A stretch of 64,000 nt of DNA from Bacillota bacterium (lineage in GTDB: Bacteria > Bacillota > Dethiobacteria > DTU022 > UBA8154), in assembly GCA_012798755.1 (NCBI GenBank), contig JAAZMP010000022.1:2047-66046 (forward strand), given 5' to 3'. This document shows positions 2,444 through 62,640 of the stretch, piece after piece. The notes beneath the pieces were generated by a model that did not search any database, was not told the DNA's origin, and was given only the letters and a program-made list of their open reading frames with translations. Position 1 is the first letter of the stretch, and the number at the start of each line of letters is the position of its first letter. The position numbers were made by a program, and so were the translations under genes.

Positions 2444-5017
2444 TCATTTTTGAATACCTTCTACAAGAATTCGCAGATAATTATAATCCTCATTGCGATC
2501 AAAGAAGAGAATATGCTTTTCTGTAAATTTGTCTCTGTTCCATGTACCACCGCCATAATGTTGACGCAATGTTTCATATGGGGTGCTAGAAATTATAAAG
2601 GCATCAAGAGATACATTCTTGATTTCACTTCGAGTTTTAATCCCTTCACTAATTACCGCCAGCCGTTCATGAAGTTGGGCTTTTTCATCGTAAATATACT
2701 CTGTCGCATGCATCATCCCGTGAGGTTCGATAAAAATAATTCGTTGCCCCACCTCATTAATCAACCACATAATAAAATCCGGATAAAACCCACTGTTTTT
2801 GAAAAAATAAACGCCTTTTCCACGACTCAAGTTGCGAAGCAAGAACAGCTCTGTTTCTGCTAACGCGTCTCGTCCATCTCCGTTCAAATATTCTTTTAGA
2901 TCGCTAACAAAACGTGCTTCGCTGTCTTCTAAACCTGAAGGGTTAGCTACCATCTTCTCACCTTTCAACAAAAGAGGCTGATATAGATGACGATCAAAAT
3001 AGATATGCGGAATCTTGGCATCAACGAGTTCAGATAATTGTCCCGGATTTGATTGTATCCTTTCAATAGCGGTTATTAGCTCTAGCTCATCTTTTTTTAT
3101 CTTGGCCGAGTAATTCGCAATTGAATCTTCCCTCAACTTCGCATTAAAAGCTAAATTCGGATCATCGGTATCAAGAATCTTATAGACCATATTTTCCGAA
3201 GCCCATCTTTCACAGTGACCTCGATAAAAACAATCCACATAATTTTGCAAAATATTACTGACCGCACTTTGAAGTAACATCCGTTCAGCAAACGAACTAG
3301 GATTAAAAACAGTTTCATCAGCAATTAGTGTATAGTTTATTTCTTCCATTATTTTTCGGGGTATTTTGGAGCCTATCACTAGATTATCCAGTTCTTTGTG
3401 TTTCTTGTAAGTCAATAAATCCAAATATACTTGATCCCAATCTATTAAATCAAGGTTTTCAATAGCTATCCTTCCAGATTTGCCTCCAAACGCATCCTCA
3501 GTCTCAAACCTTCCTTCACCGCTTGCAATGGCGTGCACTTTTACAGACAGATCTACAGTTAAATTGATGTTTGTGTCTATATCAAGAAGTAAAGCACTAT
3601 CGCTTGCATGTCTCCTATTTTCAATTGATCGAGGCACAACTAAACCTCGCTGCAAGAATTCTGCATTGATAGAAATAGGGACAGACATTTCAACAGTATC
3701 TTCAACATCTAATCCTTCACGTTCTAAGTATTCCCGAAATTCCGACATATAGTTTGCACGCACTGCAAAGATATCCAAAGTTTCCAAAAGCTTCAACTGC
3801 GGTGGATGGTTGCCATCAAGAGCTGCACTTCTTTTAAGTGAAAAGTCTTTTCCGCGTAAACGTACACCGCGACCAAATAGTTGAATAATTAAAGAACCCT
3901 CACTTCTTCCAATATTGAGTAGGCCCATATTAGAAACTCGCCAAGAATTCCAGCCTTCCATAAATTTCCTGGCACCAATTAAAATATTTGTTTTAGAATC
4001 CGCGTTGTTGATTTCATTAAATAAAGAACCGGAGATTGTATCATCTTCCAGTACTATACCTGATGAGTCATCTCTAACTAAGTTCTTAAACGAAGCTGTA
4101 TCTCCAATGTAAATTAAACCAAAATATGCTTCTGCCCCACTTACTTTCAAAGCTAACTCGTCCTGCCTAGCACGTATATCACAAAGATGTAGCGCTCCAC
4201 CCGTTTCAGAATGAAATACTTTTTTTAAAATGTCCGAATATATACTTTCTGCTGAGGATTTTTTTTGTCTCAAGTATTCGAATCGTCCAGCAAAAACATC
4301 CAATCCTTTCGGCGTAGTTAGTCCACTATTACCAGCTAAAAAGCTTTCTATACCCTTAATTACCCAATCGTCTTTATTCTCTAACACGTGATGAAGAAAT
4401 CGTATAATAGTTAAAACATCGCTCCGCCTCTGACGTTTTCGCCTATATATGGCATTCACAGTTAAACCAACAAAAAGCCATAAAGGTTTCTCCAGATTAT
4501 ATGGACGAATTTCGTCATTCTGTTCAGAAAACGCACATAGTTGTTCATAAAAGGAAAGAAGGTTTCCTAACAACAACATTTCTGTTTGAGTTTCTCTAAC
4601 TTCCTCGCGTAGATTTAAAATGCGGAAATTCTTGCCAAAACCGTCACTATAAAAATAAAAATATGAATAGTCAAAGATCATTGACTTGCCGTATTCTATT
4701 GTAAGAGGATCTCGACGAGCCGCGCTTAGCGCTTGCCCAAAGGTTGCGCTATATTCAAAAGTAAAGCCGGTTTCCGCCAATGCTTCGCGATACCCTCGCC
4801 AAACCTCTCCACCTGATCCTTTGTGGCCTTCATCGACAAAAATTAAATTTCGTCCTTCGAATGCTTCTACTGGAACACTTACGCCGCCGCCTCGTTTTTG
4901 CTCTACCAGTTTAGTAATCTCGATAACTTTAACTGCATTATGTTCGAGAAATAACTGGTTAGCGTTCTCGTTTATAGTCTTCTTCTGTCCATCCCTCGGT
5001 TGTCCGCCAAATAACAA
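2444..5017 (-). CDS. res: Type III restriction enzyme Res subunit homolog, N-terminally truncated (DExH box present; helicase motif I/Walker A region absent)
   Basis: DEGH (DEAH-like) box at residue ~62 followed by ...YSATF, as in EcoP15I Res around residue 235; the ~170 residues that normally precede it have no room because the upstream mod gene ends at 4959. Confidence 0.55.
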   Translation of the reverse strand: MLFGGQPRDGQKKTINENANQLFLEHNAVKVIEITKLVEQKRGGGVSVPVEAFEGRNLIFVDEGHKGSGGEVWRGYREALAETGFTFEYSATFGQALSAARRDPLTIEYGKSMIFDYSYFYFYSDGFGKNFRILNLREEVRETQTEMLLLGNLLSFYEQLCAFSEQNDEIRPYNLEKPLWLFVGLTVNAIYRRKRQRRSDVLTIIRFLHHVLENKDDWVIKGIESFLAGNSGLTTPKGLDVFAGRFEYLRQKKSSAESIYSDILKKVFHSETGGALHLCDIRARQDELALKVSGAEAYFGLIYIGDTASFKNLVRDDSSGIVLEDDTISGSLFNEINNADSKTNILIGARKFMEGWNSWRVSNMGLLNIGRSEGSLIIQLFGRGVRLRGKDFSLKRSAALDGNHPPQLKLLETLDIFAVRANYMSEFREYLEREGLDVEDTVEMSVPISINAEFLQRGLVVPRSIENRRHASDSALLLDIDTNINLTVDLSVKVHAIASGEGRFETEDAFGGKSGRIAIENLDLIDWDQVYLDLLTYKKHKELDNLVIGSKIPRKIMEEINYTLIADETVFNPSSFAERMLLQSAVSNILQNYVDCFYRGHCERWASENMVYKILDTDDPNLAFNAKLREDSIANYSAKIKKDELELITAIERIQSNPGQLSELVDAKIPHIYFDRHLYQPLLLKGEKMVANPSGLEDSEARFVSDLKEYLNGDGRDALAETELFLLRNLSRGKGVYFFKNSGFYPDFIMWLINEVGQRIIFIEPHGMMHATEYIYDEKAQLHERLAVISEGIKTRSEIKNVSLDAFIISSTPYETLRQHYGGGTWNRDKFTEKHILFFDRNEDYNYLRILVEGIQK

Positions 5018-6250
5018 TTGTATTACGCCCGTTGCGAGTAGTGCCTTTATGGACTAAATAACGCCTATCGTCATCGTATAGAACTAACCTTTTCTCCACC
5101 GCTAATCCTAAAAGATAAGCAAAAGTCTCAGGTAAGTCAACTACCTTACTTTTTGTCTTCCCACCTGCTTCATCGTTATTACAATGAATGTATAACTCGT
5201 AAGAAAACGGATTGTCCATTTTTTTCACATTTAATAATGTCTCGCTTTTTCTAGTTTCCCATTTTAGCATGTATTGCAACAAATAATCATCAAACTGCAA
5301 AGTTTGTTGCTCAGCAGATTCATCAAAAGTTATGTTATTTAACGAATCCTCATAAGACTCTAGGCGAATAACCTTAACTATACGAGGACTATTTTTTGCT
5401 TCCTCGGGTGTAGCCATCCTACGCGGCTTGCCATTCCGCCATTCAGGTGAAAAAGTAACTTTCTTGATTCTTGGTAAAAGCACTGTATCAAAATACTCGG
5501 CCATCTCTACAAGTATAAACTTTCGGTTGCCACCATCTTCACGATTAAGATTGATAACAGCATGACCGGTAGTGCCTGAACCAGCGAAATAGTCAAAAAT
5601 CTTATCATCTGACCGTGGGCTAATTACACGAATAGAATCTTCTACTAATCCAACAGCCTTAGGATAATCAAAATCACCAAAACGACCAAACAAATTCTTA
5701 ACTTCACGCGTTCCCCAATCTGTTGCCGAATATTCCTTTTTTGCCCACCATGTTGGGGGCGTAACCCCTTCAGGCTGTCGAGCCTTTATATAAAGGCTTA
5801 ACTGTCCACTCCTGTCCTTATCCAGTTTTACCTCTGTTGGGGAATCGGTTAATCGCTCTATACTCCATTTCCATCGTCGGTGTTGACCTTGTTCATCAAT
5901 GGGAAATAGTATCGTTTCTTTCTCTCTCGGCTCTTCTTCCAATATCCACTTTTCGTTAACATCATCCCAAAACATTTCGGGAATGCGGTAACGAAGCATT
6001 GATTCATCTATAAAAATTGGATAATACATTCGCATAGACTCTTCTCTTGTTCCGCCGTGTTTTCTAAAATTGACCCATTCATATTTGCCAAATTCATCGC
6101 GTTCTTTATATCTTCTTTTTTGTTTCTCAGAATGGGCAAATTACCTTTAAAGATCAAACATTTGTTCTGTGACGTTAAGTTAATACCAAAATGGGCATTC
6201 AACAAAATTGAAATCAAAGTCCCCAGCATAGATATACTGCTGTTTGGCAC
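4959..6250 (-). pseudogene. mod: Type III R-M Mod methyltransferase remnant: N-fragment (6008-6250) and C-fragment (4959-6035) in different frames, internal region with motif IV (DPPY) deleted
   Basis: C-fragment carries motif I DYFAGSGTTGHAV and FILVEMAEYFDTV, matching the C-terminal third of beta-class Type III Mod; N-fragment has LIFKGNLPIL resembling the LLIKGDNLEVL block that precedes DPPY; no DPPY in any frame between. Confidence 0.55.
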
Positions 6251-29856: not shown

Positions 29857-29977
29857 CCTGACAGGGGGACGGTTCTCTGACAGGGGGACGGTTCTCTGAC
29901 ACGGGAGTTGAATCGAATCGACCTGACAGGGGGACGTGACAGGGGGACGGTTCTCTGACACGGGAGTTGAATCGCAA
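29857..29977. repeat. Tandem array (4 copies, one truncated) of ~22-bp motif TGACAGGGGGACGGTTCTCTGACA
   Basis: Direct reading of sequence; same family as repeats at 30372-30396, 58368-58600, 60085-60247, 62616-62640. Confidence 0.8.
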
Positions 29978-30371: not shown

Positions 30372-30396
30372 GTGTCAGAGAACCGTCCCCTTGTCA
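30372..30396. repeat. Inverted solo copy of the same motif (TGTCAGAGAACCGTCCCCTTGTCA)
   Basis: Reverse complement equals TGACAAGGGGACGGTTCTCTGACA; together with 29857-29977 bounds a ~540-bp noncoding segment. Confidence 0.75.
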
Positions 30397-42244: not shown

Positions 42245-42360
42245 TGGCTGGCAGAGTAGGTGTTGTGCGTAAAGTGCTAAGGGATGGGAAGTTGCCCTTA
42301 GACGAAGGGTGCCCAATTGGCAGGCGACCTGCGACATAACACCGCATCCGCTGTCACACA
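42245..42360 (+). ncRNA. THF (tetrahydrofolate) riboswitch
   Basis: AGAGTAGG...TGCGT-AAGTGC...GGGAAG...GGGTGCCC-ATTGG...GGCGA-CTGCG-CATA...GCATCCGCTGT blocks as I recall them from the Rfam THF (folT) motif; immediately upstream of an ECF S-component. Confidence 0.7.
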
Positions 42361-42440: not shown

Positions 42441-43016
42441 TTGAAGGGTAGAATTTCTACGCAGATGTTGACAAGGATGGCCCTGTTGATCGCCCTGGCA
42501 ATCATTGCTGAAAGAGTTTTAAGCATACGTATACCCCTGGGCGGTACAGAAGGTTTTCGTCTTGGTTTCGGGTCGTTGCCTATTGTCTTTTCCGGCATTT
42601 TTATGGGGCCGTTGGCCGGAGGATTGGTTGGGGCTATCGCTGATCTGGCCGGTTATTTTATTAACCCCTTTGGTCCGTACATGCCTCATTTTACCTTAAC
42701 TTCTACTTTAAGGGGAGTCATCCCCGGGCTGGTTATATTGCTGGCCAGTAGAGGGAGGCGTGAAGTGGGCGTTTTCCCCTTGTTTCTTGCTGTAGTGGCC
42801 ATGTTTGTAATAGTAAATATCCTGATTCTTCCTTATTTCCAGGAAATATTATTTGGCTTACTGCGTGTTGTTGTCGTTCCGACAAAAATAGTGGAAGCTG
42901 CCATTAACATCCCGGTTTATACGGTAATACTTTTTACACTGGGGAAAGTTATGGAGAGAGTCTTTGTTTCCGGCTACGATAAGAATGTTTTGCGTCTTTC
43001 GGGCCGGTTGTGGTAG
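42441..43016 (+). CDS. folT: ECF transporter S-component, folate family (FolT-like)
   Basis: 191 aa, 5-6 TM, ECF-S fold pattern; preceded by THF riboswitch. Confidence 0.65.
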   Translation: MKGRISTQMLTRMALLIALAIIAERVLSIRIPLGGTEGFRLGFGSLPIVFSGIFMGPLAGGLVGAIADLAGYFINPFGPYMPHFTLTSTLRGVIPGLVILLASRGRREVGVFPLFLAVVAMFVIVNILILPYFQEILFGLLRVVVVPTKIVEAAINIPVYTVILFTLGKVMERVFVSGYDKNVLRLSGRLW

Positions 43017-49764: not shown

Positions 49765-49874
49765 AAAATATAAAGTGGTATGGCGGGCGGCTTTGCTGTA
49801 GGCCGGAAAACAGCATAAGTCCAAGGTTGATAACAATATAGCGATCTAAATTAGCAAACAAGGAAGTGATCTAG

Positions 49875-51614
49875 TTGAGCCTTTTGTTATTATCAGTTGT
49901 TGCGCCGGTCATAGTATTTCCTGCCGTGCTTTTTCTTTCACAAAAGTGGCGCCGGGCAATCATGTTGATTTATATTGCCGGGCTGATCTATCTGGCCTTT
50001 TATCTCCTGTCCGGCGTTGAATTGGGCAGCCTTACCTTAATGTCAAAAAATCTGACATTGTTTTCGTTTAGCAGCCATCCTTACAGTAAAATTGCCGGCT
50101 TTGGTTTTCTGTTTGTGGGAGCCATTGGGCTTCTTTATGGCCTTGATGTCTCCAAGCCCGGGGAACAGGCGGTATTGTTAGGAGCAATAGGCAGTGCAAT
50201 AGGTGTTTGCTTTGCTGATAACTTCATTACCTTTCTTTTCTTTTGGGAGACCTTAACCTTAACCACTGCAGCTTTGGTTTTCCTAAAGAGAACACCGCAT
50301 GCTGTACGTATGGCTTTTCGGATGTTGCTCTTTTCATTGATGAGTGGCTTTTTCTTATTGATTGGAATAATACTTCAATACAATGCCACAGGTACTTTTG
50401 AATTAATGTTTCCGGTGGCCGGACTTACATTTTTCATTTTGGGCATCGGCATAAAAACCGCTTTTTTGCCTTTACACCTTTGGGTTCCCTGGGGATACCC
50501 CGCAGCCAGTTTTCCTTGCAGTGTTTTATTGGCGGCTCTATGTACAAAGGTTGGCGTCTATGCCGTGGCACGGTTGCTCCCACCTGGTAACTTGATTTAT
50601 ATCATGGGGGCCTGTATGGCTATCTATGCAGTTATCGCGGCTCTTCTCCAAAACGATCTGCGCCATCTGCTTTCATACAGTATTATCAGCAAGGTTGGGT
50701 TTATGGTTTGCGGTGTAGGTATCGGAGTACCCCTGGCAATAGACGGCGGGTTTTTATTTCTGATACATCATATGTTTTATAAAGCGCTGCTTTTTATGTG
50801 CGCAGGTGCCTTGATCTATACGGTGGGAACGGAAAATTTTCAAAAGTTACAGCACCGCGAAGAAGCCCCGGTGGGCGAAAAGGGCCCTTCACCCTTGTGG
50901 AAAGCCTTGCCGGTAGCTTTTATCGGGGCATTGGTAGGGGCGCTGGCTATCTCAGGCACCCCTCCTTTTAACGGCTATGTAGGTAAGCATTTAATAAAAC
51001 ATGCAGTAGCGGCAGCAGATCCGGCGGCAGGGTTGGTTTTAACGCTGGCCAGTATAGCAACAGCGCTTTGTTTTTGCAAGTTCGTATATTTTGGTTTCAT
51101 TAAAGCCTGGGGGAAAATCCGCAGGAAATTGACCTTCAGCATGCAGGCAGCTATCGTTATATTGTCTGCCGGCTGTCTGATAACAGGCATCTGGCCGCAA
51201 CTTTTGGCATCACTTACGCCCTATGGTTCATCGCTTAATGTTTATACCGCGGAAGGTATCTTTGCCGCGCTAAAACCAATTGCTTATGGGATAATATTAT
51301 TTGCTCTCCTAGCCAAGTCGCTGGGAAGGGAAATCAAATTGTTCTTGCCTGCCGGTGGTGTAAGATTAGTTGTAGATGATGCCTTGACCGGCGCTTATAG
51401 CAATGCTTTGAATTCGCTACGTGTTTTCAGAGAAAAGAGCTACCGTTTCGCTTTTAAAATGATGCAGAAAACAGATTATAAGCCGGGCCAGAACAGGGTT
51501 TTCCAATTTATTAACGTTTGTAACATAGATTTCGATGTCCTAATGCTTTTAGGGATGTTGGGCCTGGCGCTGTTTTTCCTGTTTTGTCTTCAGTTTGGAT
51601 TTCTGGCTATCTGA
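49875..51614 (+). CDS. NuoL/MrpA-N-domain-like proton-conducting membrane subunit, paralog 1 (579 aa)
   Basis: NuoL-like N-terminus, LHLWVPWGY ... HHMFYKALLFMCAG core; TTG start after AAGGAAG. Confidence 0.7.
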   Translation: MSLLLLSVVAPVIVFPAVLFLSQKWRRAIMLIYIAGLIYLAFYLLSGVELGSLTLMSKNLTLFSFSSHPYSKIAGFGFLFVGAIGLLYGLDVSKPGEQAVLLGAIGSAIGVCFADNFITFLFFWETLTLTTAALVFLKRTPHAVRMAFRMLLFSLMSGFFLLIGIILQYNATGTFELMFPVAGLTFFILGIGIKTAFLPLHLWVPWGYPAASFPCSVLLAALCTKVGVYAVARLLPPGNLIYIMGACMAIYAVIAALLQNDLRHLLSYSIISKVGFMVCGVGIGVPLAIDGGFLFLIHHMFYKALLFMCAGALIYTVGTENFQKLQHREEAPVGEKGPSPLWKALPVAFIGALVGALAISGTPPFNGYVGKHLIKHAVAAADPAAGLVLTLASIATALCFCKFVYFGFIKAWGKIRRKLTFSMQAAIVILSAGCLITGIWPQLLASLTPYGSSLNVYTAEGIFAALKPIAYGIILFALLAKSLGREIKLFLPAGGVRLVVDDALTGAYSNALNSLRVFREKSYRFAFKMMQKTDYKPGQNRVFQFINVCNIDFDVLMLLGMLGLALFFLFCLQFGFLAI

Positions 51615-53192: not shown

Positions 53193-53433
53193 TTTGGTGA
53201 TGGGGAAAACAGCTAAATTTGACATAGGAAAGGGTGGATTCAAATGATTTAAAAAAATTTCCGAGCAATTTTCGGACCTTGAAATTGCAGTTCCAATTAT
53301 GCCGGCAATGCGCTTAAATTATGACTATGTTTTGGCAGCCATATCCCCCGGTTGGGAATTGGCTTGAGGGAAACGGTAAATTTTAACTAGGCGAAGGTTA
53401 TATCAACAATATGATAAAAAAGGAGTGTTTTAA

Positions 53434-55194
53434 ATGACCATTTTGTTATTATCTGTGGTTGCTCCAATTATAGTATCACCTGCTGTGCTATTGCTTTCGC
53501 AAAAGTGGCGTAGAATTTTGCTGCAAACTTACATTGTGGGGCTTCTCTTTTTAGCGTTTTATCTGTTAAGTGGCATTGAACTGGGAAATTATACTTTGTT
53601 TGCTGATTCTGCTCATCATTTGAAAACAAACCTGACATTTTTTTCGTTTAGTGAACACTCTTACAGTAAAATTGCGGCCTTCGGATTTCTGTTTGTGGGT
53701 GCTATGGGGCTGCTTTTTGGCCTCGATGTATCCAAGCCAAGTGAACAGGCCCTGTCGTTGGGCGCCATAGCTGCTGCCATAGGTGTTTGTTTTGCCGATA
53801 ATTTTCTTACTTTTCTCTTCTTTTGGGAGATCCTTACTTTAACTACCGCTGCTCTGGTGTTTTTAAAAAGAACACCTCATGCTGTTCGTATGGCTTACAG
53901 GATGTTGTTCTTCTCGCTGGCAAGTGGTTTTTCGTTACTGGTGGGTATAATTTTGCAGTATAACGCTGTAGGAACCTTTGAATTAATGTATCCGGTAGCG
54001 GGACTGTCTTTCTTTATTTTGGGTATAGGTATAAAAACCGCTTTTTTACCGCTGTATTTCTGGCTTCCATGGGGTTATGCCGCTGCAAGTTTTCCCAGTA
54101 GCGTTTTGCTGGCAGTGTTGTGTACAAAGGTCGGCGTATACGCTGTAGCGCGGATTCTGCCGCCGAGTAACTTTATTGTTATGATGGGGGCATGTATGGC
54201 AATTTTTGCCGTTGTCATGGCCTTGCTTCAGAATAACCTGCGCCGTTTCTTATCGTATCACATAATCAGCCAGGTCGGGTATATGGTTGCAGCAGTAGGG
54301 CTGGGTGTATCTTTTTCCATAGATGGTGGATTCTTGCATCTTCTTAATCATATGTTTTACAAAGCCCTGCTTTTCATGAGTGTGGGAGCTTTAATATTTA
54401 CCGCGAGGACGGAAAATTTCCAAAAGTTAAGCTCTGCTGAAAATTCCATCGTAGAAGCAGGAAAACGTTCACCTTTGTGGAAAGCCTTGCCCGCAGCATT
54501 CGTTGGTGCCCTGGTCGGTTCACTTGCTATTTCCGGTACCCCTTTGTTTAACGGTTATGTAGGGAAATATCTTATAAAAAATGCCATGAGTGGCGTACAG
54601 CCGGCGGAAATTTTACTGATGATAACCAGCGTAGGTACGGTTTTATGTTTTTGCAAGTTTATCTACTTCGGTTTTATCAAAGCACGGGCCAAAATACGCA
54701 AACGGCTGACTTCAAGCATGCAAACGGCCATTGTTATATTATCTGCAAGCTGTTTGATTACAGGCATCCGGCCGCAGCTTTTGGCAAGCATACTTCCCTA
54801 TAGCTCATCCCTTGAAGTTTATACGATGGAAGGAATAGTAATGGCCATGTTGATATTAGCATCAGGAGTGGTTATGTTTGCACTACTGCACAGGGTCCTG
54901 GAAAAGGAAATAAAATTGTCTTTTCCTGCAACTATTAAATCCGCTTTAAATATTTTGCCCGGTATATACAGTAGCCTATCGAATGTTACAGGAGCAGTCA
55001 GCAGCAGATTTCATTACTTATATTTTGGCTGCAGGCAGAAGTTAAATACAAAGGTAAACAAAATTAAGACCTCGCAATTTGCATATGCCACGAGCATAGA
55101 TTTTGATACATTACTTCTCATGGGTATGTTGGGAATAGTATTGACGCTGTTCTTTTGCCTGCAATTTGGTCTTTTCCGTATCATAATTTCGTAA
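53434..55194 (+). CDS. NuoL/MrpA-N-domain-like membrane subunit, paralog 2 (586 aa)
   Basis: Co-linear with paralog 1 (same N-terminus MxxLLLSVVAPxIVxPAVL, same C-terminal NIDFD..LLxGMLG tail); RBS AAAAGGAG. Confidence 0.7.
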   Translation: MTILLLSVVAPIIVSPAVLLLSQKWRRILLQTYIVGLLFLAFYLLSGIELGNYTLFADSAHHLKTNLTFFSFSEHSYSKIAAFGFLFVGAMGLLFGLDVSKPSEQALSLGAIAAAIGVCFADNFLTFLFFWEILTLTTAALVFLKRTPHAVRMAYRMLFFSLASGFSLLVGIILQYNAVGTFELMYPVAGLSFFILGIGIKTAFLPLYFWLPWGYAAASFPSSVLLAVLCTKVGVYAVARILPPSNFIVMMGACMAIFAVVMALLQNNLRRFLSYHIISQVGYMVAAVGLGVSFSIDGGFLHLLNHMFYKALLFMSVGALIFTARTENFQKLSSAENSIVEAGKRSPLWKALPAAFVGALVGSLAISGTPLFNGYVGKYLIKNAMSGVQPAEILLMITSVGTVLCFCKFIYFGFIKARAKIRKRLTSSMQTAIVILSASCLITGIRPQLLASILPYSSSLEVYTMEGIVMAMLILASGVVMFALLHRVLEKEIKLSFPATIKSALNILPGIYSSLSNVTGAVSSRFHYLYFGCRQKLNTKVNKIKTSQFAYATSIDFDTLLLMGMLGIVLTLFFCLQFGLFRIIIS

Positions 55195-56035: not shown

Positions 56036-56253
56036 TATAGGAAATTATGTCCCCAATAAGGAGGTGAGCCGGCAAAAAACATAAATTTGCTTAAATGGAA
56101 CATTTTGGATCAATGTGCGTGGAACAGCTTTTTCAAATAGCAGGATTTGTAGGTTACTTGTTTAGGAAATACAGCAGTTGTGGCAGTTCATAGGCAATAA
56201 AACCGAAGTAATTTTATCTTTCATACCTCAAAATTTACAGGGAAGTGATCTGG

Positions 56254-57996
56254 ATGAACTTTTTAGCATTGTCAATATTTGCCCCTGTGATAGTATCTCC
56301 AGTCATTATGTTTATTTCACAGAAGCGCCGGAGAGCCCTGATGCTGGTATATATTGCGGGGCTTCTTTTTCTGGCGTTTTATCTGTTGGCCGGGACCAAG
56401 TTAGGAGGTTACGTTGCATTTGCTGATTCAGCTTTTCAGTTGGAAACGAAGCTGACACTGTTTTCGTTCAGCGAACATCCCTACAGCAAAATAGCCGCTT
56501 TTGGATTCTTATTTGTAGGAGCTATTGGACTGCTGTATGGTCTGGATGTTTCCAAACCCTCAGAACAGGCTGTAGCCTTGGTTGCAGTTGCCAGCGCTTT
56601 GGGTGTAGCTTTTGCTGATAATTTCCTTACTTTTCTTTTCTTCTGGGAAACGTTAACCCTGTCTACTGCTGCACTCGTCTTTTTAAGAAGAACACCGCAT
56701 GCCGTAAGCATGGCTTACCGTTTACTGTTCTTTTCGCTCATGAGCGGCTTTATGCTGTTAGTGGGAATTATACTTCAGTATAACGCTACGGGGACTTTTG
56801 CACTGATGTACCCGGAAGCAGGACTTATCTTTTTCATCTTAGGTATAGGTATCAAAACGGCTTTTTTACCTTTGCATTTTTGGGTTCCCTGGGGTTACCC
56901 GGCTGCCAATTTTCCCAGCAGTGTTCTTTTGGCGGCCCTTTGCACAAAGGTGGGAGTTTACGCGGTAGCTCGGGTTCTTCCTCCCAGCAATTTTATCAAT
57001 ATCATGGGCGCTGTCATGGCTATATTTGCGGTCACCATGGCCCTTTTGCAAAGCGATCTGCGCAAGCTGCTTTCCTATCACATAATTAGCCAGGTAGGTT
57101 ACATGGTTGCGGGAGTGGGTCTGGGTATTTCCCTTTCCGTAGACGGCGGGCTTCTGCACTTAGTCAATCATATGATTTATAAAGCACTTCTTTTTATGAG
57201 TGCAGGTGCCGTTATTTTTGCTGTTGGAACGGAAAGCTTACATGATCTACATGTTCCCGGGGAAACTGCTGGCAAGGATAAACCATTGCTTTGGAAGGCG
57301 CTTCCTGTTGCTTTTGTAGGGGCACTTGTGGGGGCGCTGGCTATTTCCGGGACACCTCTTTTCAACGGCTATGTCAGCAAATACTTACTAAAAAATGCCA
57401 TGCAAGGCGTAAACCCGGCCGGTTGGCTGTTGAATGTAGCCAGTGTGGGAACGGCTCTTTCCTTCAGCAAATTTGTATATTTCGGATTTATCAAGGGTAG
57501 AGCAAAAATACAAAACAAATTGACCTTGAGCATGCAGGCTGCCATAGCGGTACTGTCCATTAGCTGTATTGCAACGGGTATCTGGCCGCGCTCTTTGTCA
57601 ACATTGTTGCCCCATGCTTCTTCGCTAAAAGTCTATTCATTATCCGGGGTGGTAACAGCTGCAGGCTTAGTAATTCTGGGGATAGCGTGTTTCATCCTGT
57701 TGTCTGAAGCCTTGCAAAAAGAAATAAAACTTTCTTTGCCCGTTTCTATAAAGTTGGCCGTGGATAGGGCCGCTCTTAGCACATACAGCAACATACTGAA
57801 AGCAATGGGGGCTTTTAAAGACCTTGTCTTTCATTCTGCATTTCGTTTAATGCAAAAAACGGATTACAAGCCGGGGAAAAGCGGTGTTTTCCATTTTATT
57901 AACGTAGCTAACATTGATTTTGATGTTATGCTGCTCATGGCTATGCTGGGGGTTACCTTGGTCTTCTTGTTCAGCACATTCGGCGCAGGATTTTAA
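56254..57996 (+). CDS. NuoL/MrpA-N-domain-like membrane subunit, paralog 3 (~580 aa)
   Basis: Co-linear with paralogs 1 and 2; leader AGGGAAGTGATCTGGATG nearly identical to paralog 1 leader. Confidence 0.7.
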   Translation: MNFLALSIFAPVIVSPVIMFISQKRRRALMLVYIAGLLFLAFYLLAGTKLGGYVAFADSAFQLETKLTLFSFSEHPYSKIAAFGFLFVGAIGLLYGLDVSKPSEQAVALVAVASALGVAFADNFLTFLFFWETLTLSTAALVFLRRTPHAVSMAYRLLFFSLMSGFMLLVGIILQYNATGTFALMYPEAGLIFFILGIGIKTAFLPLHFWVPWGYPAANFPSSVLLAALCTKVGVYAVARVLPPSNFINIMGAVMAIFAVTMALLQSDLRKLLSYHIISQVGYMVAGVGLGISLSVDGGLLHLVNHMIYKALLFMSAGAVIFAVGTESLHDLHVPGETAGKDKPLLWKALPVAFVGALVGALAISGTPLFNGYVSKYLLKNAMQGVNPAGWLLNVASVGTALSFSKFVYFGFIKGRAKIQNKLTLSMQAAIAVLSISCIATGIWPRSLSTLLPHASSLKVYSLSGVVTAAGLVILGIACFILLSEALQKEIKLSLPVSIKLAVDRAALSTYSNILKAMGAFKDLVFHSAFRLMQKTDYKPGKSGVFHFINVANIDFDVMLLMAMLGVTLVFLFSTFGAGF

Positions 57997-58367
57997 AAGA
58001 GAAGATAAAAGAAATTTGAACGCTCAATTGATAGGCGCTGCAGAATCTTCTGTGGCGCTTATTGATTTGTTTAGGAAATAATTGCAGATCCCATCCTAAA
58101 AAAAACAACCAAAATAAAGCAGGTCAAAGCAAAAAAGGATATCAATATCAACAAATTAACTTTATTCATACCTACTGACCTCCAAAACAATATTTACTAT
58201 CCTCCCAGGCCGAGCATTTCTTTGCAAATTGCTGGTGGCCTGTTTTGGAACCAGCCCTGCTTTAAAACCAAAGTGGGAATTGATGGATGAGTTTTAAGAA
58301 TACGCCATTACCACTTTATAACAGAATAAGAAAAAAAGCAACGTTCATTTTGTAGTTCCTGTTACAA

Positions 58368-58600
58368 GGTGTCAAGGGGACGGTTCTCTGTCACCAACGG
58401 CGGTGTTCGGGAGGTGTCAGGGGGACGGTTCTCTGTCACCTTAGTTATTTAAAATAAGATCACAGCATTATCGGGATGACAGAGAACCGTCCCCCTGACA
58501 CCTCCCAGCATTATCGGGGTGACAGAGAACCGTCCCCCTGACACCTTTTGGTGACACTGCCGGCTTTTACCGACGCTTTCGAACCGTCCCCCTGACACCT
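58368..58600. repeat. Left inverted-repeat arm: several copies, in both orientations, of the 27-bp motif GTGTCAGGGGGACGGTTCTCTGTCACC with CAGCATTATCGGG linkers
   Basis: Direct reading; reverse complement of 60085-60247 matches it with only a few mismatches over ~150 bp. Confidence 0.85.
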
Positions 58601-58673
58601 CCTTTGTCATCTTTTGATCATCATTTCGTGATGGAATTATAAAAACGGGCTTTTACAGTGATTTTGGAAGGGT

Positions 58674-58973
58674 TCAGCGCTGTTTCTTTAATTCTTCAAT
58701 CTCATTTTCCAAAGCCCGGATCCGATCCAGAAGTTTCAAAATAACACCCGTTCCTGCCAGATTTACACCCAGCATGCGCTGCAGGCGAATGGCTTGAAAA
58801 ATACGTTGGATCTGATCCGCACGGATCATATTTTCTCGAATTTCAATAACACCCAGTTCGTCCATTTTTTTCAATATTTCATAGGACAATCCCACTGATT
58901 CAATTTCCACCCAGGAGTAACCCTCACATAGTTCGGGTTCGAAACAATATAGCTGCAGGTGAATTTTTTTCAT
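58674..58973 (-). CDS. cbpM: MerR-like chaperone-modulator protein (CbpM-like), 99 aa
   Basis: Small MerR-type protein immediately downstream of a CbpA-like DnaJ gene; coiled C-terminus (RIRALENEIEELKKQR). Confidence 0.5.
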   Translation of the reverse strand: MKKIHLQLYCFEPELCEGYSWVEIESVGLSYEILKKMDELGVIEIRENMIRADQIQRIFQAIRLQRMLGVNLAGTGVILKLLDRIRALENEIEELKKQR

Positions 58974-58979
58974 AAAGCA

Positions 58980-60029
58980 TCACCCTTTAGTGTGTAATTT
59001 GGCGAGTTTTCGGTAAAGTTCTTTTTCTTCAGTGCCCATCTGTGACGGCAGATCGATAACAACTTTGTAAATGATATCGCCGCGTTTTCCATCCTTTTTC
59101 AATAGCCCCTTTTGGGCCAAGCGAAGTTTTTTGCCCCGGCGGACTTGCGGGGGCACAATCAGTCGAACGGATCCATCAAGTGTCGGAACTTCTACCTTGT
59201 CGCCCAGCACGGCTTGCCAGGGGGATAGCACCAAGTCTGCTTCCAAATTATCACCCTGTATGGAAAACACCGGATGTGGTGCCAGTTTTATTTTCAGGTA
59301 CAAGTCACCCGGTTCACCGCCGGCGGTGGAACTTCCCTGTTCTTTTAAACGTATTTTACTGCCCGGGCGGGCATCAGGCGGCACCTTAATTTTTAAAGTT
59401 TTAGCCCCGGGGATTTGCCCGCTACCGGCACACCGGGAACAAAAGGTGTTTCCGGCAATTCCGGATCCCCCGCAGGCAGGGCAAAAATCTTGGGTGGCAA
59501 GCCGGACAATTTTTTCACTATTGCGGTATATTTCCTCCAAAGTTACCTCCAGTTCGGCTTCTACATCCATTCCTCTACGGGGCTGCTGCTGCGGCCCGGC
59601 ATCATAAAAGAATTCCCGTGAATATCCCCCGCGGCCCAAATCTTCAAAAATAGCCGAGAAGAAATCACTAAACCCGGTATCAGCTGCACCTTCACCGGAG
59701 GTATAAAATCTAAATCCTCCTTGGGCGGCGGGATCTTGTTGTGCAAAATCCCGGTAGTCAAATTCATCTCCATGTTGCCAATTAGCTCCCAAACGATCAT
59801 ATTTGGATCTTTTGTCCGGATCACCCAGAACGGCGTATGCTTCGTTTATTTTTTTGATTTTTTCTTCTGCTTTTTCTTTATCTTTGCCTGAATGAAGGTC
59901 AGGATGATGTTGGCGGGCCAGTTTGCGATAGGCTTTTTTTATATCTTGCTGGGAAGCATCCCGGGAGAGGCCCAAGATTTCATAATAATCCTGAAATTCG
60001 ATTGCCATTTTCGTGTTCACCGCTTTCAA
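58980..60029 (-). CDS. cbpA: DnaJ-class co-chaperone (CbpA-like: J-domain, Gly/Phe region, one CxxCxG-type zinc knuckle, C-terminal substrate domains)
   Basis: J domain with HPD (YYEILGL...YRKLARQHHPDL), CPACGGSG...CSRCAGSG, DnaJ C-terminal blocks. Confidence 0.75.
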   Translation of the reverse strand: MKAVNTKMAIEFQDYYEILGLSRDASQQDIKKAYRKLARQHHPDLHSGKDKEKAEEKIKKINEAYAVLGDPDKRSKYDRLGANWQHGDEFDYRDFAQQDPAAQGGFRFYTSGEGAADTGFSDFFSAIFEDLGRGGYSREFFYDAGPQQQPRRGMDVEAELEVTLEEIYRNSEKIVRLATQDFCPACGGSGIAGNTFCSRCAGSGQIPGAKTLKIKVPPDARPGSKIRLKEQGSSTAGGEPGDLYLKIKLAPHPVFSIQGDNLEADLVLSPWQAVLGDKVEVPTLDGSVRLIVPPQVRRGKKLRLAQKGLLKKDGKRGDIIYKVVIDLPSQMGTEEKELYRKLAKLHTKG

Positions 60030-60084
60030 AAAACAATTACTAGATGATAAGGGAACGGGGCGTTAAGGGGATCGGTGTCGGATG

Positions 60085-60247
60085 TGTCAAGGGAAGGTGT
60101 CAGGGGGACGTTTCTCTGTCACCCCGATAATGCTGGAGGTGTCAGGGGGACGGTTCTCTGTCACCCCGATAATGCTGTGATCTTATTTTAAATAACTAAG
60201 GTGACAGAGAACCGTCCCCCTGACACCGTCCCGTCCCCCTGACACCG
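60085..60247. repeat. Right inverted-repeat arm (inverted copy of 58368-58600)
   Basis: Direct reading; includes same CCCGATAATGCTG linkers and the 37-nt segment TTAGTTATTTAAAATAAGATCACAGCATTATCGGG in reverse complement. Confidence 0.85.
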
Positions 60248-60462
60248 TCTCCTGATACCGACATCCCTAACGTCTTCGTGCATCCATTCTTTGTCTTACT
60301 TATTATCTCATATTCTATGTGGCGAAGTAAATTCCTGTAGGAATAAAAAAAGCATGATTGCAATATTGCTGCAAATCATCGGCCTGAAAAAATAATTGCA
60401 GGATTCAAGAAATATTCGCCGAAATTGGTAATGAATAGATTTTAGTTAGGGAGGCTGTTGTT

Positions 60463-62613: not shown

Positions 62614-62615
62614 AG

Positions 62616-62640
62616 GTGACAGGGGGACGGTTTTTCTATC
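62616..62640. repeat. Degenerate solo copy of the dyad motif (GGTGACAGGGGGACGGTTTTTCTATC)
   Basis: Direct reading, 3 bp after CofE-like stop. Confidence 0.6.

Follow-up and report, generated by a model that had tools for sequence, protein, structure and literature searches.

Inverted-repeat arms around a cbpA-cbpM operon of a Dethiobacteria-related bacterium are probably clusters of a dispersed intergenic repeat

A 64,000-nucleotide stretch of DNA from a Bacillota bacterium of the Dethiobacteria (GenBank assembly GCA_012798755.1, contig JAAZMP010000022.1, positions 2,047 to 66,046 of the forward strand; the whole of it is called the window here) carries near its right end a two-gene operon enclosed by long inverted-repeat arms, and the nature of these arms is the subject of this work. 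As the initial annotation stated, the arms enclose no genes other than a DnaJ-like cbpA and a MerR-like cbpM; the latter proved to be of the MerR_2 type (Table 1). They are 6 nt apart, the pair is kept in all relatives, and by domain content the operon can be classed as a cbpA-cbpM co-chaperone pair. The closest CbpA homologs (71–77% identity) come from metagenome-assembled genomes (MAGs) of Dethiobacteria, and the alignment with relatives does not support the TTG at 60029 chosen as the start of cbpA by the open reading frame (ORF) finder. Genes for an Mrp antiporter, a protease, an F420-ligase-like protein, and amidohydrolases lie near the operon.

Table 1. Features of the window that concern the repeat and the cbpAM operon (positions are those of the window)
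Feature	Position	Strand	Remarks
Core in four direct copies, two of them as a 19-nt tandem	29859..29965	+	a MazG-domain gene ends 4 nt before it
Solitary core copy (A variant)	30378..30396	-	~70 nt upstream of the next gene
Left arm, five motif copies in the cbpM 3' flank	58366..58602	.	begins 71 nt past the cbpM stop
Left-arm copy F1	58368..58395	+	1 mismatch
Left-arm copy F2	58413..58440	+	
93-nt hairpin unit, left copy	58413..58505	+	28-mer, 34-nt AT-rich loop (58441-58474), inverted 28-mer
Two tandem 43-nt modules	58460..58545	-	CAGCATTATCGGGR + inverted 28-mer; counterpart in right arm 60095-60177
Left-arm copy R1	58475..58502	-	1 mismatch
Left-arm copy R2	58518..58545	-	
Left-arm copy R3	58581..58602	-	partial
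cbpM-like gene	58674..58973	-	99 aa; MerR_2 (PF13591)
cbpA-like gene	58980..60008	-	342 aa from ATG at 60008; DnaJ + DnaJ_C (PF00226 + PF01556)
Conserved cbpA leader and ribosome-binding site	60009..60036	-	TTGTTTTTTGAAAGCGGTGAACACGAAA; common to all related cbpAM loci (alignment A2)
Stretch between promoter block and leader, predicted long 5' untranslated region	60037..60301	-	carries the right arm; ~265 nt vs ~15-25 nt in relatives (alignment A2)
Right arm	60079..60258	.	hairpin, z = -9.2
Right-arm partial copy	60085..60094	+	
Right-arm copy F1'	60096..60123	+	1 mismatch
93-nt hairpin unit, right copy	60135..60227	-	inverted relative to the left copy, 99%
Right-arm copy F2'	60138..60165	+	
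Right-arm copy R1'	60200..60227	-	
Right-arm partial copy R	60233..60246	-	
Conserved cbpAM promoter block	60302..60336	-	AGGAATT-N14-GAATATGAGATAAT; outside the arms; alignment A2 with 7 related lineages
Degenerate solitary copy	62615..62635	+	F420-ligase-like gene ends 3 nt before it; next gene ~75 nt further on

The inverted arms are real. In a repeat search of the window the two 93-nt units proved 99% complementary, and BLAST of an independent assembly delimited a 141-nt block (58408–58547 vs 60094–60233) of 97.2% complementarity. The earlier description of near-perfect arms of ~150 bp is fair for this block, but it does not hold for the full spans of 233 and 163 nt, as outside the block the wider arms are only ~75–77% alike. 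Both arms are built from a 28-mer, GGTGTCAGGGGGACGGTTCTCTGTCACC, which occurs in five copies in the left arm and in about four and a half in the right, in both orientations. With up to three mismatches allowed, the 27-mer has 8 matches in the window, while 0.00 are expected from shuffles; for the 14-nt core the numbers are 14 and 0.24. The 93-nt unit has 28-nt terminal inverted repeats and a size within the range of miniature inverted-repeat transposable elements (MITEs; 50–500 bp), and folds as DNA with −33.9 kcal/mol (z = −11.7). The AT-rich linker in the arms is 34–38 nt long, with ~26% GC. Each arm is itself a long hairpin, as had been proposed: the minimum free energy (MFE) of the left arm as RNA, a nested structure, is −165.7 kcal/mol (z = −12.0), and that of the right arm −132.9 kcal/mol (z = −9.2). 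An internal tandem duplication of a 42–43-nt module (repeat families D1 and D2) is common to both arms. An A/G difference between the tandem modules of the left arm (58476, 58519) is swapped in the independent assembly L002, which reflects either a real exchange between tandem copies or an assembly ambiguity. The 8-bp inverted ends ascribed to the 27/28-mer need correction, being only 7/8 complementary in the window (T·T or A·A mismatch).

Beside the left arm, a 66-aa hydrophobic small ORF with a GGAGG ribosome-binding site was noted (57971–58170, minus strand). The sole promoter-like site of this ORF, TTGACA-17-CAAAAT (10/12), lies at 58347–58375 on the minus strand, and its −35 element is the outermost A-variant copy of the left arm (GTGTCAAGGGG, other strand). 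The repeat could be donating a promoter element to the ORF.

How the right arm came to its place can be read from related loci. Eight related cbpAM lineages were retrieved and their upstream regions aligned (alignment A2). Across these regions a promoter-like block, AGGAATT-N14-GAATATGAGAT(A)CAAT, was found, with the leader/ribosome-binding block TTGTTTCTGAAAGCGGTGAAC located 15–25 nt downstream of it in the relatives. The form AGGAATT-N14-GAATATGAGATACAAT precedes cbpA in seven Dethiobacteria-like lineages (L045, L047, L049, L053, L054, L055, and L057). In the window both blocks are present, and the promoter block overlaps a promoter-like site predicted there; the right arm is located between them. 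Since the ancestral promoter block is kept just outside the arm and the ancestral leader just inside it, the alignment shows that ~250 nt with the right arm were inserted in situ into the 5' untranslated region (5'UTR) of a pre-existing cbpAM locus. The promoter block may resemble the consensus of Bacillus sigma-H, and a promoter of this kind would presumably fit stationary-phase expression of CbpA. In the search for an empty site, no ortholog of the neighboring protease above 51% identity was found.

In seven of the eight related lineages the motif was not found around cbpAM. In the Dethiobacteria MAG L048, whose lineage is not the sister of that of the window, the operon is bracketed by one inverted pair of 22 nt, GGCAGGGGYAAGAACCGTCCC (3840–3860 and 5245–5265). 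The pair has one copy directly upstream of the same leader and one 14 nt past the stop of cbpM, and their relative orientation matches that in the window; the pair and the window motif have in common only an 11-nt core, AGAACCGTCCC. A tRNA cluster, which itself comes after dnaG-sigA, lies just upstream of the cbpAM genes of L048.

The position of the promoter and the leader also bears on the possibility that the arms served as the ends of a composite transposon-like unit, which moved cbpAM into its present locus. The neighborhood of cbpAM differs in every related lineage, the arms are inverted and have motif copies at their outer ends, and in L048 an inverted pair also surrounds cbpAM, beside tRNA genes. 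However, a unit bounded by the arms would leave its promoter behind and yet land beside an identical one, which is implausible. Neither a target duplication at the outer ends of the arms nor a transposase was found, and the relatives are only ~77% identical, so that the loss of synteny is uninformative. Such mobilization is thus regarded as extremely unlikely. For the same reason, the suggestion of a MITE that captured the operon stands only in part: the building block is MITE-like, or similar to the hairpin-forming doublets (REPINs) of repetitive extragenic palindromic (REP) sequences, but nothing was captured, as the promoter and the leader flank the right arm.

The motif was initially placed in the arms alone, yet it occurs at three further places of the window (Table 1), and all 13 of its 13 core copies there fall within the 16.6% that is non-coding. 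A consensus unit derived from 83 instances, GTGWCAGGGGGACGGTTCTCTGWCAC, has no conservation beyond 26 nt, and its W positions vary independently; the basic unit is a core of 19 nt, TGWCAGGGGGACGGTTCTC, which can be repeated in tandem. Folding depends on the variant. The two single-unit variants of the window fold no better than shuffles (z = −1.4 and +0.9), and the TGACA...TGTCA variant folds with −7 kcal/mol (z = −3.1). Two more motif sites are located on the same contig just past the end of the window, and one of them, between unrelated genes (L001, 567–658), is a third full copy of the 93-nt hairpin with the same AT-rich loop.

The assemblies of this organism come from biogas-fermenter metagenomes. 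A first metagenome scan with a window-specific 25-mer gave no match, because the contigs of the organism break inside the arm; a second scan found the organism. It is also held by a Joint Genome Institute (JGI) sample, in which contig L058 is 100% identical to the window, and further motif loci were identified in this sample (L060 and L061; in the latter, inverted copies also surround a small ORF). Of the four contigs from the JGI sample, three break at the repeat. Altogether ~11 motif clusters are present in ~75 kb of sequence from the organism or the sample; all are non-coding and about six lie beyond the window.

These assemblies make it possible to consider the idea that the 1.6-kb cbpAM segment is an ON/OFF switch, flipped away from a fixed promoter by recombination between the 93–141-nt arms. 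The arms, at a distance of 1.6 kb, are inverted repeats of 99% identity, and the promoter lies outside the segment, so that a flip would silence the operon. The greater likeness of the arms to each other than to other family copies would be compatible with ongoing exchange, and a single-nucleotide swap within the left arm distinguishes assemblies. However, the four assemblies that span at least one whole arm (L001–L004, consensus contigs from different datasets) are 99.97–100% identical to the window and have the same orientation; none has the opposite one. No invertase or recombinase gene was found nearby (gene table of L001, Pfam families of the window), and the repeats are generic members of a family present at many loci. 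Some short contigs terminate within the arms (L005, L006, L058, and L059), as would happen with any repeat longer than the assembler k-mer. An invertible segment is very unlikely on these grounds, although a rare RecA-mediated inversion would escape notice in consensus contigs, and together with the mobilization discussed above the proposed invertible or mobilizable cassette finds no support.

Beyond the organism, the exact 24-mer TGWCAGGGGGACGGTTCTCTGWCA was found at 38 loci in a one-genome-per-species set of Bacillota. Its carriers include the isolates Syntrophaceticus schinkii (Thermoanaerobacterales) and Desulfofundulus thermobenzoicus (Peptococcaceae), MAGs of Syntrophomonadaceae, and a rumen MAG with ~20 sites. 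The copies in other genomes are nearly always exact and nearly always intergenic. They often begin 0–10 nt after a stop codon, which is sometimes the TGA of the motif itself, and are positioned shortly before the ribosome-binding site of the next gene. They occur singly, in tandem (periods of 19–54 nt), or as head-to-head pairs, with a spacing between units that varies (19, 30–36, or 43–54 nt). Three occurrences of 93-nt doublets are known; head-to-head pairs are present in L021, L025, L035, and L036, and clusters in the cbpAM arms, L022, and L043. No larger shared element or transposase was detected among the 38 loci by BLASTN, BLASTP, or Pfam searches, and no match to the motif was found in plasmid or phage collections. 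Three 18-mer matches in viral contigs were rejected as chance ones, as all lie inside coding sequence and have no TGWCA flanks. Rfam families gave no match at gathering or permissive thresholds apart from spurious microRNA-like hairpins, and the literature searched does not contain the motif string. On these comparisons, the family populates the intergenic DNA of several anaerobic Bacillota besides this uncultured biogas bacterium related to the Dethiobacteria.

Other repeats were encountered in the same genomes. In the rumen MAG RGIG2887 a second, unrelated palindromic repeat of ~80 nt is present at at least two loci (L018, 6948–7024; L036, 3236–3318). In MAG074 another repeat, aaaggggacacacctcccttagcgcgtaaactcttggtttgg, flanks motif copies (L019, ~2356–2559; L028, ~2739–2942), and a half-motif, GGTGTCAGGGG, forms short tandem arrays, e.g., in L034 and L020.

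The turnover of the clusters is best seen in Desulfofundulus. In D. thermobenzoicus the genes cbpA-cbpM are part of a groEL-dnaK-grpE-cbpA-cbpM-clpB cluster, and the 257-nt spacer between cbpM and clpB carries a motif cluster, which is also upstream of clpB. D. thermobenzoicus (L062, 5311–5567) and a metagenomic strain with identical CbpA (L063, 3129–3410) differ in this spacer only by two indels of whole units, of which the 62-nt one contains a forward copy and the 37-nt one a reverse copy. Direct motif repeats border each indel, and the flanks are otherwise 100% identical. Comparison of the two spacers shows clusters to gain or lose whole units between near-identical strains, and this growth and shrinkage is quick and probably proceeds via slippage or unequal recombination. 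A separate element, a perfect GC-rich palindrome (GTAACGTCCCCTCC-ccgg-tGGAGGGGACGTTAC), is located in the dnaK-grpE spacer of D. thermobenzoicus (L062, ~3455–3490); it includes GGGGACG, as does the motif core.

The distribution of the motif also bears on the idea that the 28-mers are operators for the MerR-like CbpM or for another stress regulator. It could be supported by the occurrence of several copies on either side of the operon, the partial dyad ends of the unit, and the presence of the motif beside cbpM and upstream of clpB in D. thermobenzoicus. However, most copies, in this genome and in others, lie beside unrelated genes or inside operons of unrelated function, and most cbpAM loci lack the motif. 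The spacing of the units is variable, and the arm lies downstream of the promoter, which is not where the operator of a MerR-type activator would lie. Moreover, CbpM-type proteins bind the J-domain of CbpA and are devoid of the DNA-binding residues of MerR regulators (PMC4063869). An operator function is barely credible and was rejected. The initial annotation had itself named many genomic copies without a link to cbpAM as the outcome that would speak against regulation, and this is what was found, albeit for a family that is not among the known ones. CtsR, CIRCE, HAIR, Spo0A-box, and SinR-box were rejected as well, as their spacing or sequence does not fit and the distribution of the motif is not regulon-like. 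The initial exclusion of CRISPR, CIRCE, CtsR, and a canonical insertion sequence (IS) was sound, and so was the view that a miniature inverted-repeat element is involved.

If all these data are considered together, the arms are most probably clusters, similar to bacterial interspersed mosaic elements (BIMEs), of an undescribed REP/REPIN-like dispersed repeat, and not a dedicated switch, a captured cassette, or an operator. The finding is real and its mechanism largely ordinary. The units are often paired head-to-head into REPIN/MITE-like hairpins, here of 93 nt with a conserved AT-rich loop. A composite of repeats of ~140 nt lies, inverted, on both sides of the operon, one copy in the 3' flank and the other inserted between the promoter and the leader. 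The units would be spread in trans by an enzyme. Because target duplications are absent and the half-unit spreads independently, a HUH/Y1-type mechanism, as known for REP sequences and the REP-associated tyrosine transposase (RAYT), would fit by analogy. Next, the clusters would grow and shrink by slippage or unequal recombination, and the near-identity of the arms may be the result of duplication of one arm or of gene conversion between them.

Several observations weigh against this interpretation. The copy number is known for ~75 kb of sequence only. The two arms, alike at 97% over 141 nt and down to their internal tandem duplication, are closer to each other than to the third copy and are thus not two independent insertions of the basic unit. 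The 14-nt core is invariant across different orders or classes, which is unusual for selfish REP-type repeats, and a host protein recognizing the sequence could account for it. No mobilizing enzyme was found: no protein family recurs within 2–8 kb of 37 sites (Pfam, BLASTP), and no RAYT was detected at this distance in the at least 12 genomes that hold the sites, or among the 25 Pfam families of the window. RAYTs are typically single-copy genes. Neither a target-site duplication nor a conserved target sequence was seen. The three 93-nt copies and the solitary units are not flanked by any direct duplication, and the sole flanking repeats are tandem duplications of the unit (L044).

The last of these observations concerns the place of the clusters. 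In all three motif-bearing lineages that could be inspected (the window, L048, and D. thermobenzoicus), the motif adjoins cbpM. This hints at a non-random association, and it may also be due to chance, these being among the longer spacers. With four or five of 44 spacers occupied, an adjacent occupied pair is expected by chance with p of ~0.25–0.4. The cbpAM loci of Syntrophomonadaceae (L064–L066) have neither a spacer nor the motif; their MAGs differ from the motif-bearing ones and are hence uninformative. That selection for a bracket around the operon placed the motif next to cbpM is doubtful.

What the arms, as BIME-like clusters, would do to the operon can be predicted at the RNA level. 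If the conserved promoter is used, the cbpAM mRNA would start ~290 nt upstream of the ATG, and beyond cbpM the transcript would run into the left arm 71 nt past the stop; no intrinsic terminator was detected between the two. Stable hairpins would be formed at both ends of the mRNA or, alternatively, the arms would pair into a duplex of at least 140 bp around the coding region. In the MFE structure of the 1961-nt predicted transcript the arms are paired with each other by 178 inter-arm base pairs, with −798.8 kcal/mol vs −691.9 kcal/mol when only local spans are allowed. Cofolding of the arms gives −351.8 kcal/mol vs −262.0 kcal/mol for the arms folded separately. Kinetically, each arm should fold on itself first. 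An effect would be expected on the stability or processing of the mRNA, and not an action as an operator or a switch. REP elements act as 3' stabilizers of mRNA, and by analogy the end structures are expected to protect against exonucleases or to create substrates for RNase III.

The same predictions can be taken as signs of a selected RNA device, in which the arms of the 5'UTR and the 3'UTR pair into a double-stranded RNA (dsRNA) stalk, and either RNase III cuts this stalk or the stalk stabilizes the mRNA, tuning a stationary-phase chaperone pair. With the promoter block beyond the right arm, both arms are predicted to be transcribed, and the MFE favors pairing between them. An inverted pair with the AGAACCGTCCC core is present in L048 at matching positions and in matching relative orientation around cbpAM and, L048 not being the sister of the window, the two brackets may be independent acquisitions. 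On the other hand, self-complementary arms would fold on themselves co-transcriptionally, and seven of the eight related lineages have no bracket. The density of the repeat alone brackets genes elsewhere, such as the small ORF in L061, and the cases of a bracket are two (n = 2). On balance, a selected device of this kind is unlikely. Also unlikely, to a similar degree, is a broader proposal, according to which the 26-nt motif would be the recognition sequence of a protein widely conserved or transferred among anaerobic spore-forming Bacillota, the Firmicutes counterpart of REP-RAYT. Copies of the motif would, on at least two occasions, have been recruited to enclose the cbpAM mRNA in a dsRNA stalk that controls processing or stability.

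REP, REPIN, and BIME elements are well studied in Proteobacteria, and no description of such elements in Firmicutes was found in the literature searched. The family presented here is unusual in its invariant core, shared by distant anaerobic Bacillota, in a half-unit that spreads alone, and in having no enzyme linked in cis. The repeat breaks metagenome assemblies and can be mistaken for a regulatory or switch element. The cbpAM locus provides a clear-cut natural case of such a repeat entering between a conserved promoter and its leader, and it offers a testable model for the reshaping of 5'UTRs and mRNA ends by selfish repeats. The residual interest lies in the undescribed family itself, the invariance of its core across orders, and its recurrence beside cbpM.

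Elsewhere in the window, a tetrahydrofolate (THF) riboswitch was identified at 42250–42355 on the plus strand, with 77 bits vs a gathering score of 36. It is located in the spacer just before the ORF 42441–43013, and a formate-tetrahydrofolate ligase (FTHFS) has its gene at another place of the window. Three paralogous Proton_antipo_M genes (Mrp/Nuo-type) are arranged in series on the plus strand (~49856–51259, 53416–54836, and 56237–57636); they are ~70% identical in DNA, and a response regulator lies between two of them.

Among the known systems, the processing stalks of rrn operons (16S, 23S) are similar in the predicted RNA consequence only, i.e., complementary 5' and 3' segments forming a dsRNA stem. 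Unlike them, the arms at cbpAM are generic repeats, each able to fold on itself, and are known from sequence and predicted folding. The resemblance to MITEs, such as Correia elements of Neisseria or RUP, BOX, and SPRITE of pneumococcus, is greater. The 93-nt unit has 28-nt terminal inverted repeats and a short AT-rich core; like these MITEs, it is dispersed at unrelated loci, can sit in a 5'UTR and be co-transcribed, and forms a stable hairpin. Correia elements are known to supply −35 boxes, and one variant copy here supplies a TTGACA box. In contrast to MITEs, neither target-site duplications nor a parent IS sharing the ends were found among the 38 loci, and the 26-nt half spreads alone, as solitary copies and tandem arrays, which MITEs normally do not do.

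Among REP sequences, those with a CGTC tag (Di Nocera et al., 2013) deserve attention. They are like the present family in containing CGTC, in occurring mostly as head-to-head dimers, and in having no dedicated transposase (PMC3733652). However, their tag is described there as terminal and unpaired, with a stem of 8–9 bp, a loop of 4–5 nt, and a CCA tail, whereas CGTC in the present motif is within the 12-nt central core and the imperfect ends pair over at most 7 bp. Membership in this class was rejected on structure. The survey lists tagged REPs in eight phyla, and Firmicutes are not mentioned in its text (PMC3733652). In comparison with classical REPs, the consensus has no GTAG head, and CGTC is internal and not a terminal tag (PMC3733652); a single unit is not reliably palindromic. 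REP families are usually species- or genus-specific, whereas the core found here is identical across orders or classes and, unlike in REPIN-RAYT systems, no RAYT/Y1 transposase was found near the 37 sites. In the remaining respects, the family is like the REP/BIME elements of Enterobacteria and the REPIN-RAYT systems of Pseudomonas (PMC3733652, PMC3116915). It consists of short (20–40 nt) non-coding extragenic repeats, located mainly just downstream of genes and within operons, which leave no target duplication and are arranged singly, as inverted hairpin pairs (REPINs), or as mosaic clusters (BIMEs) that vary between strains.

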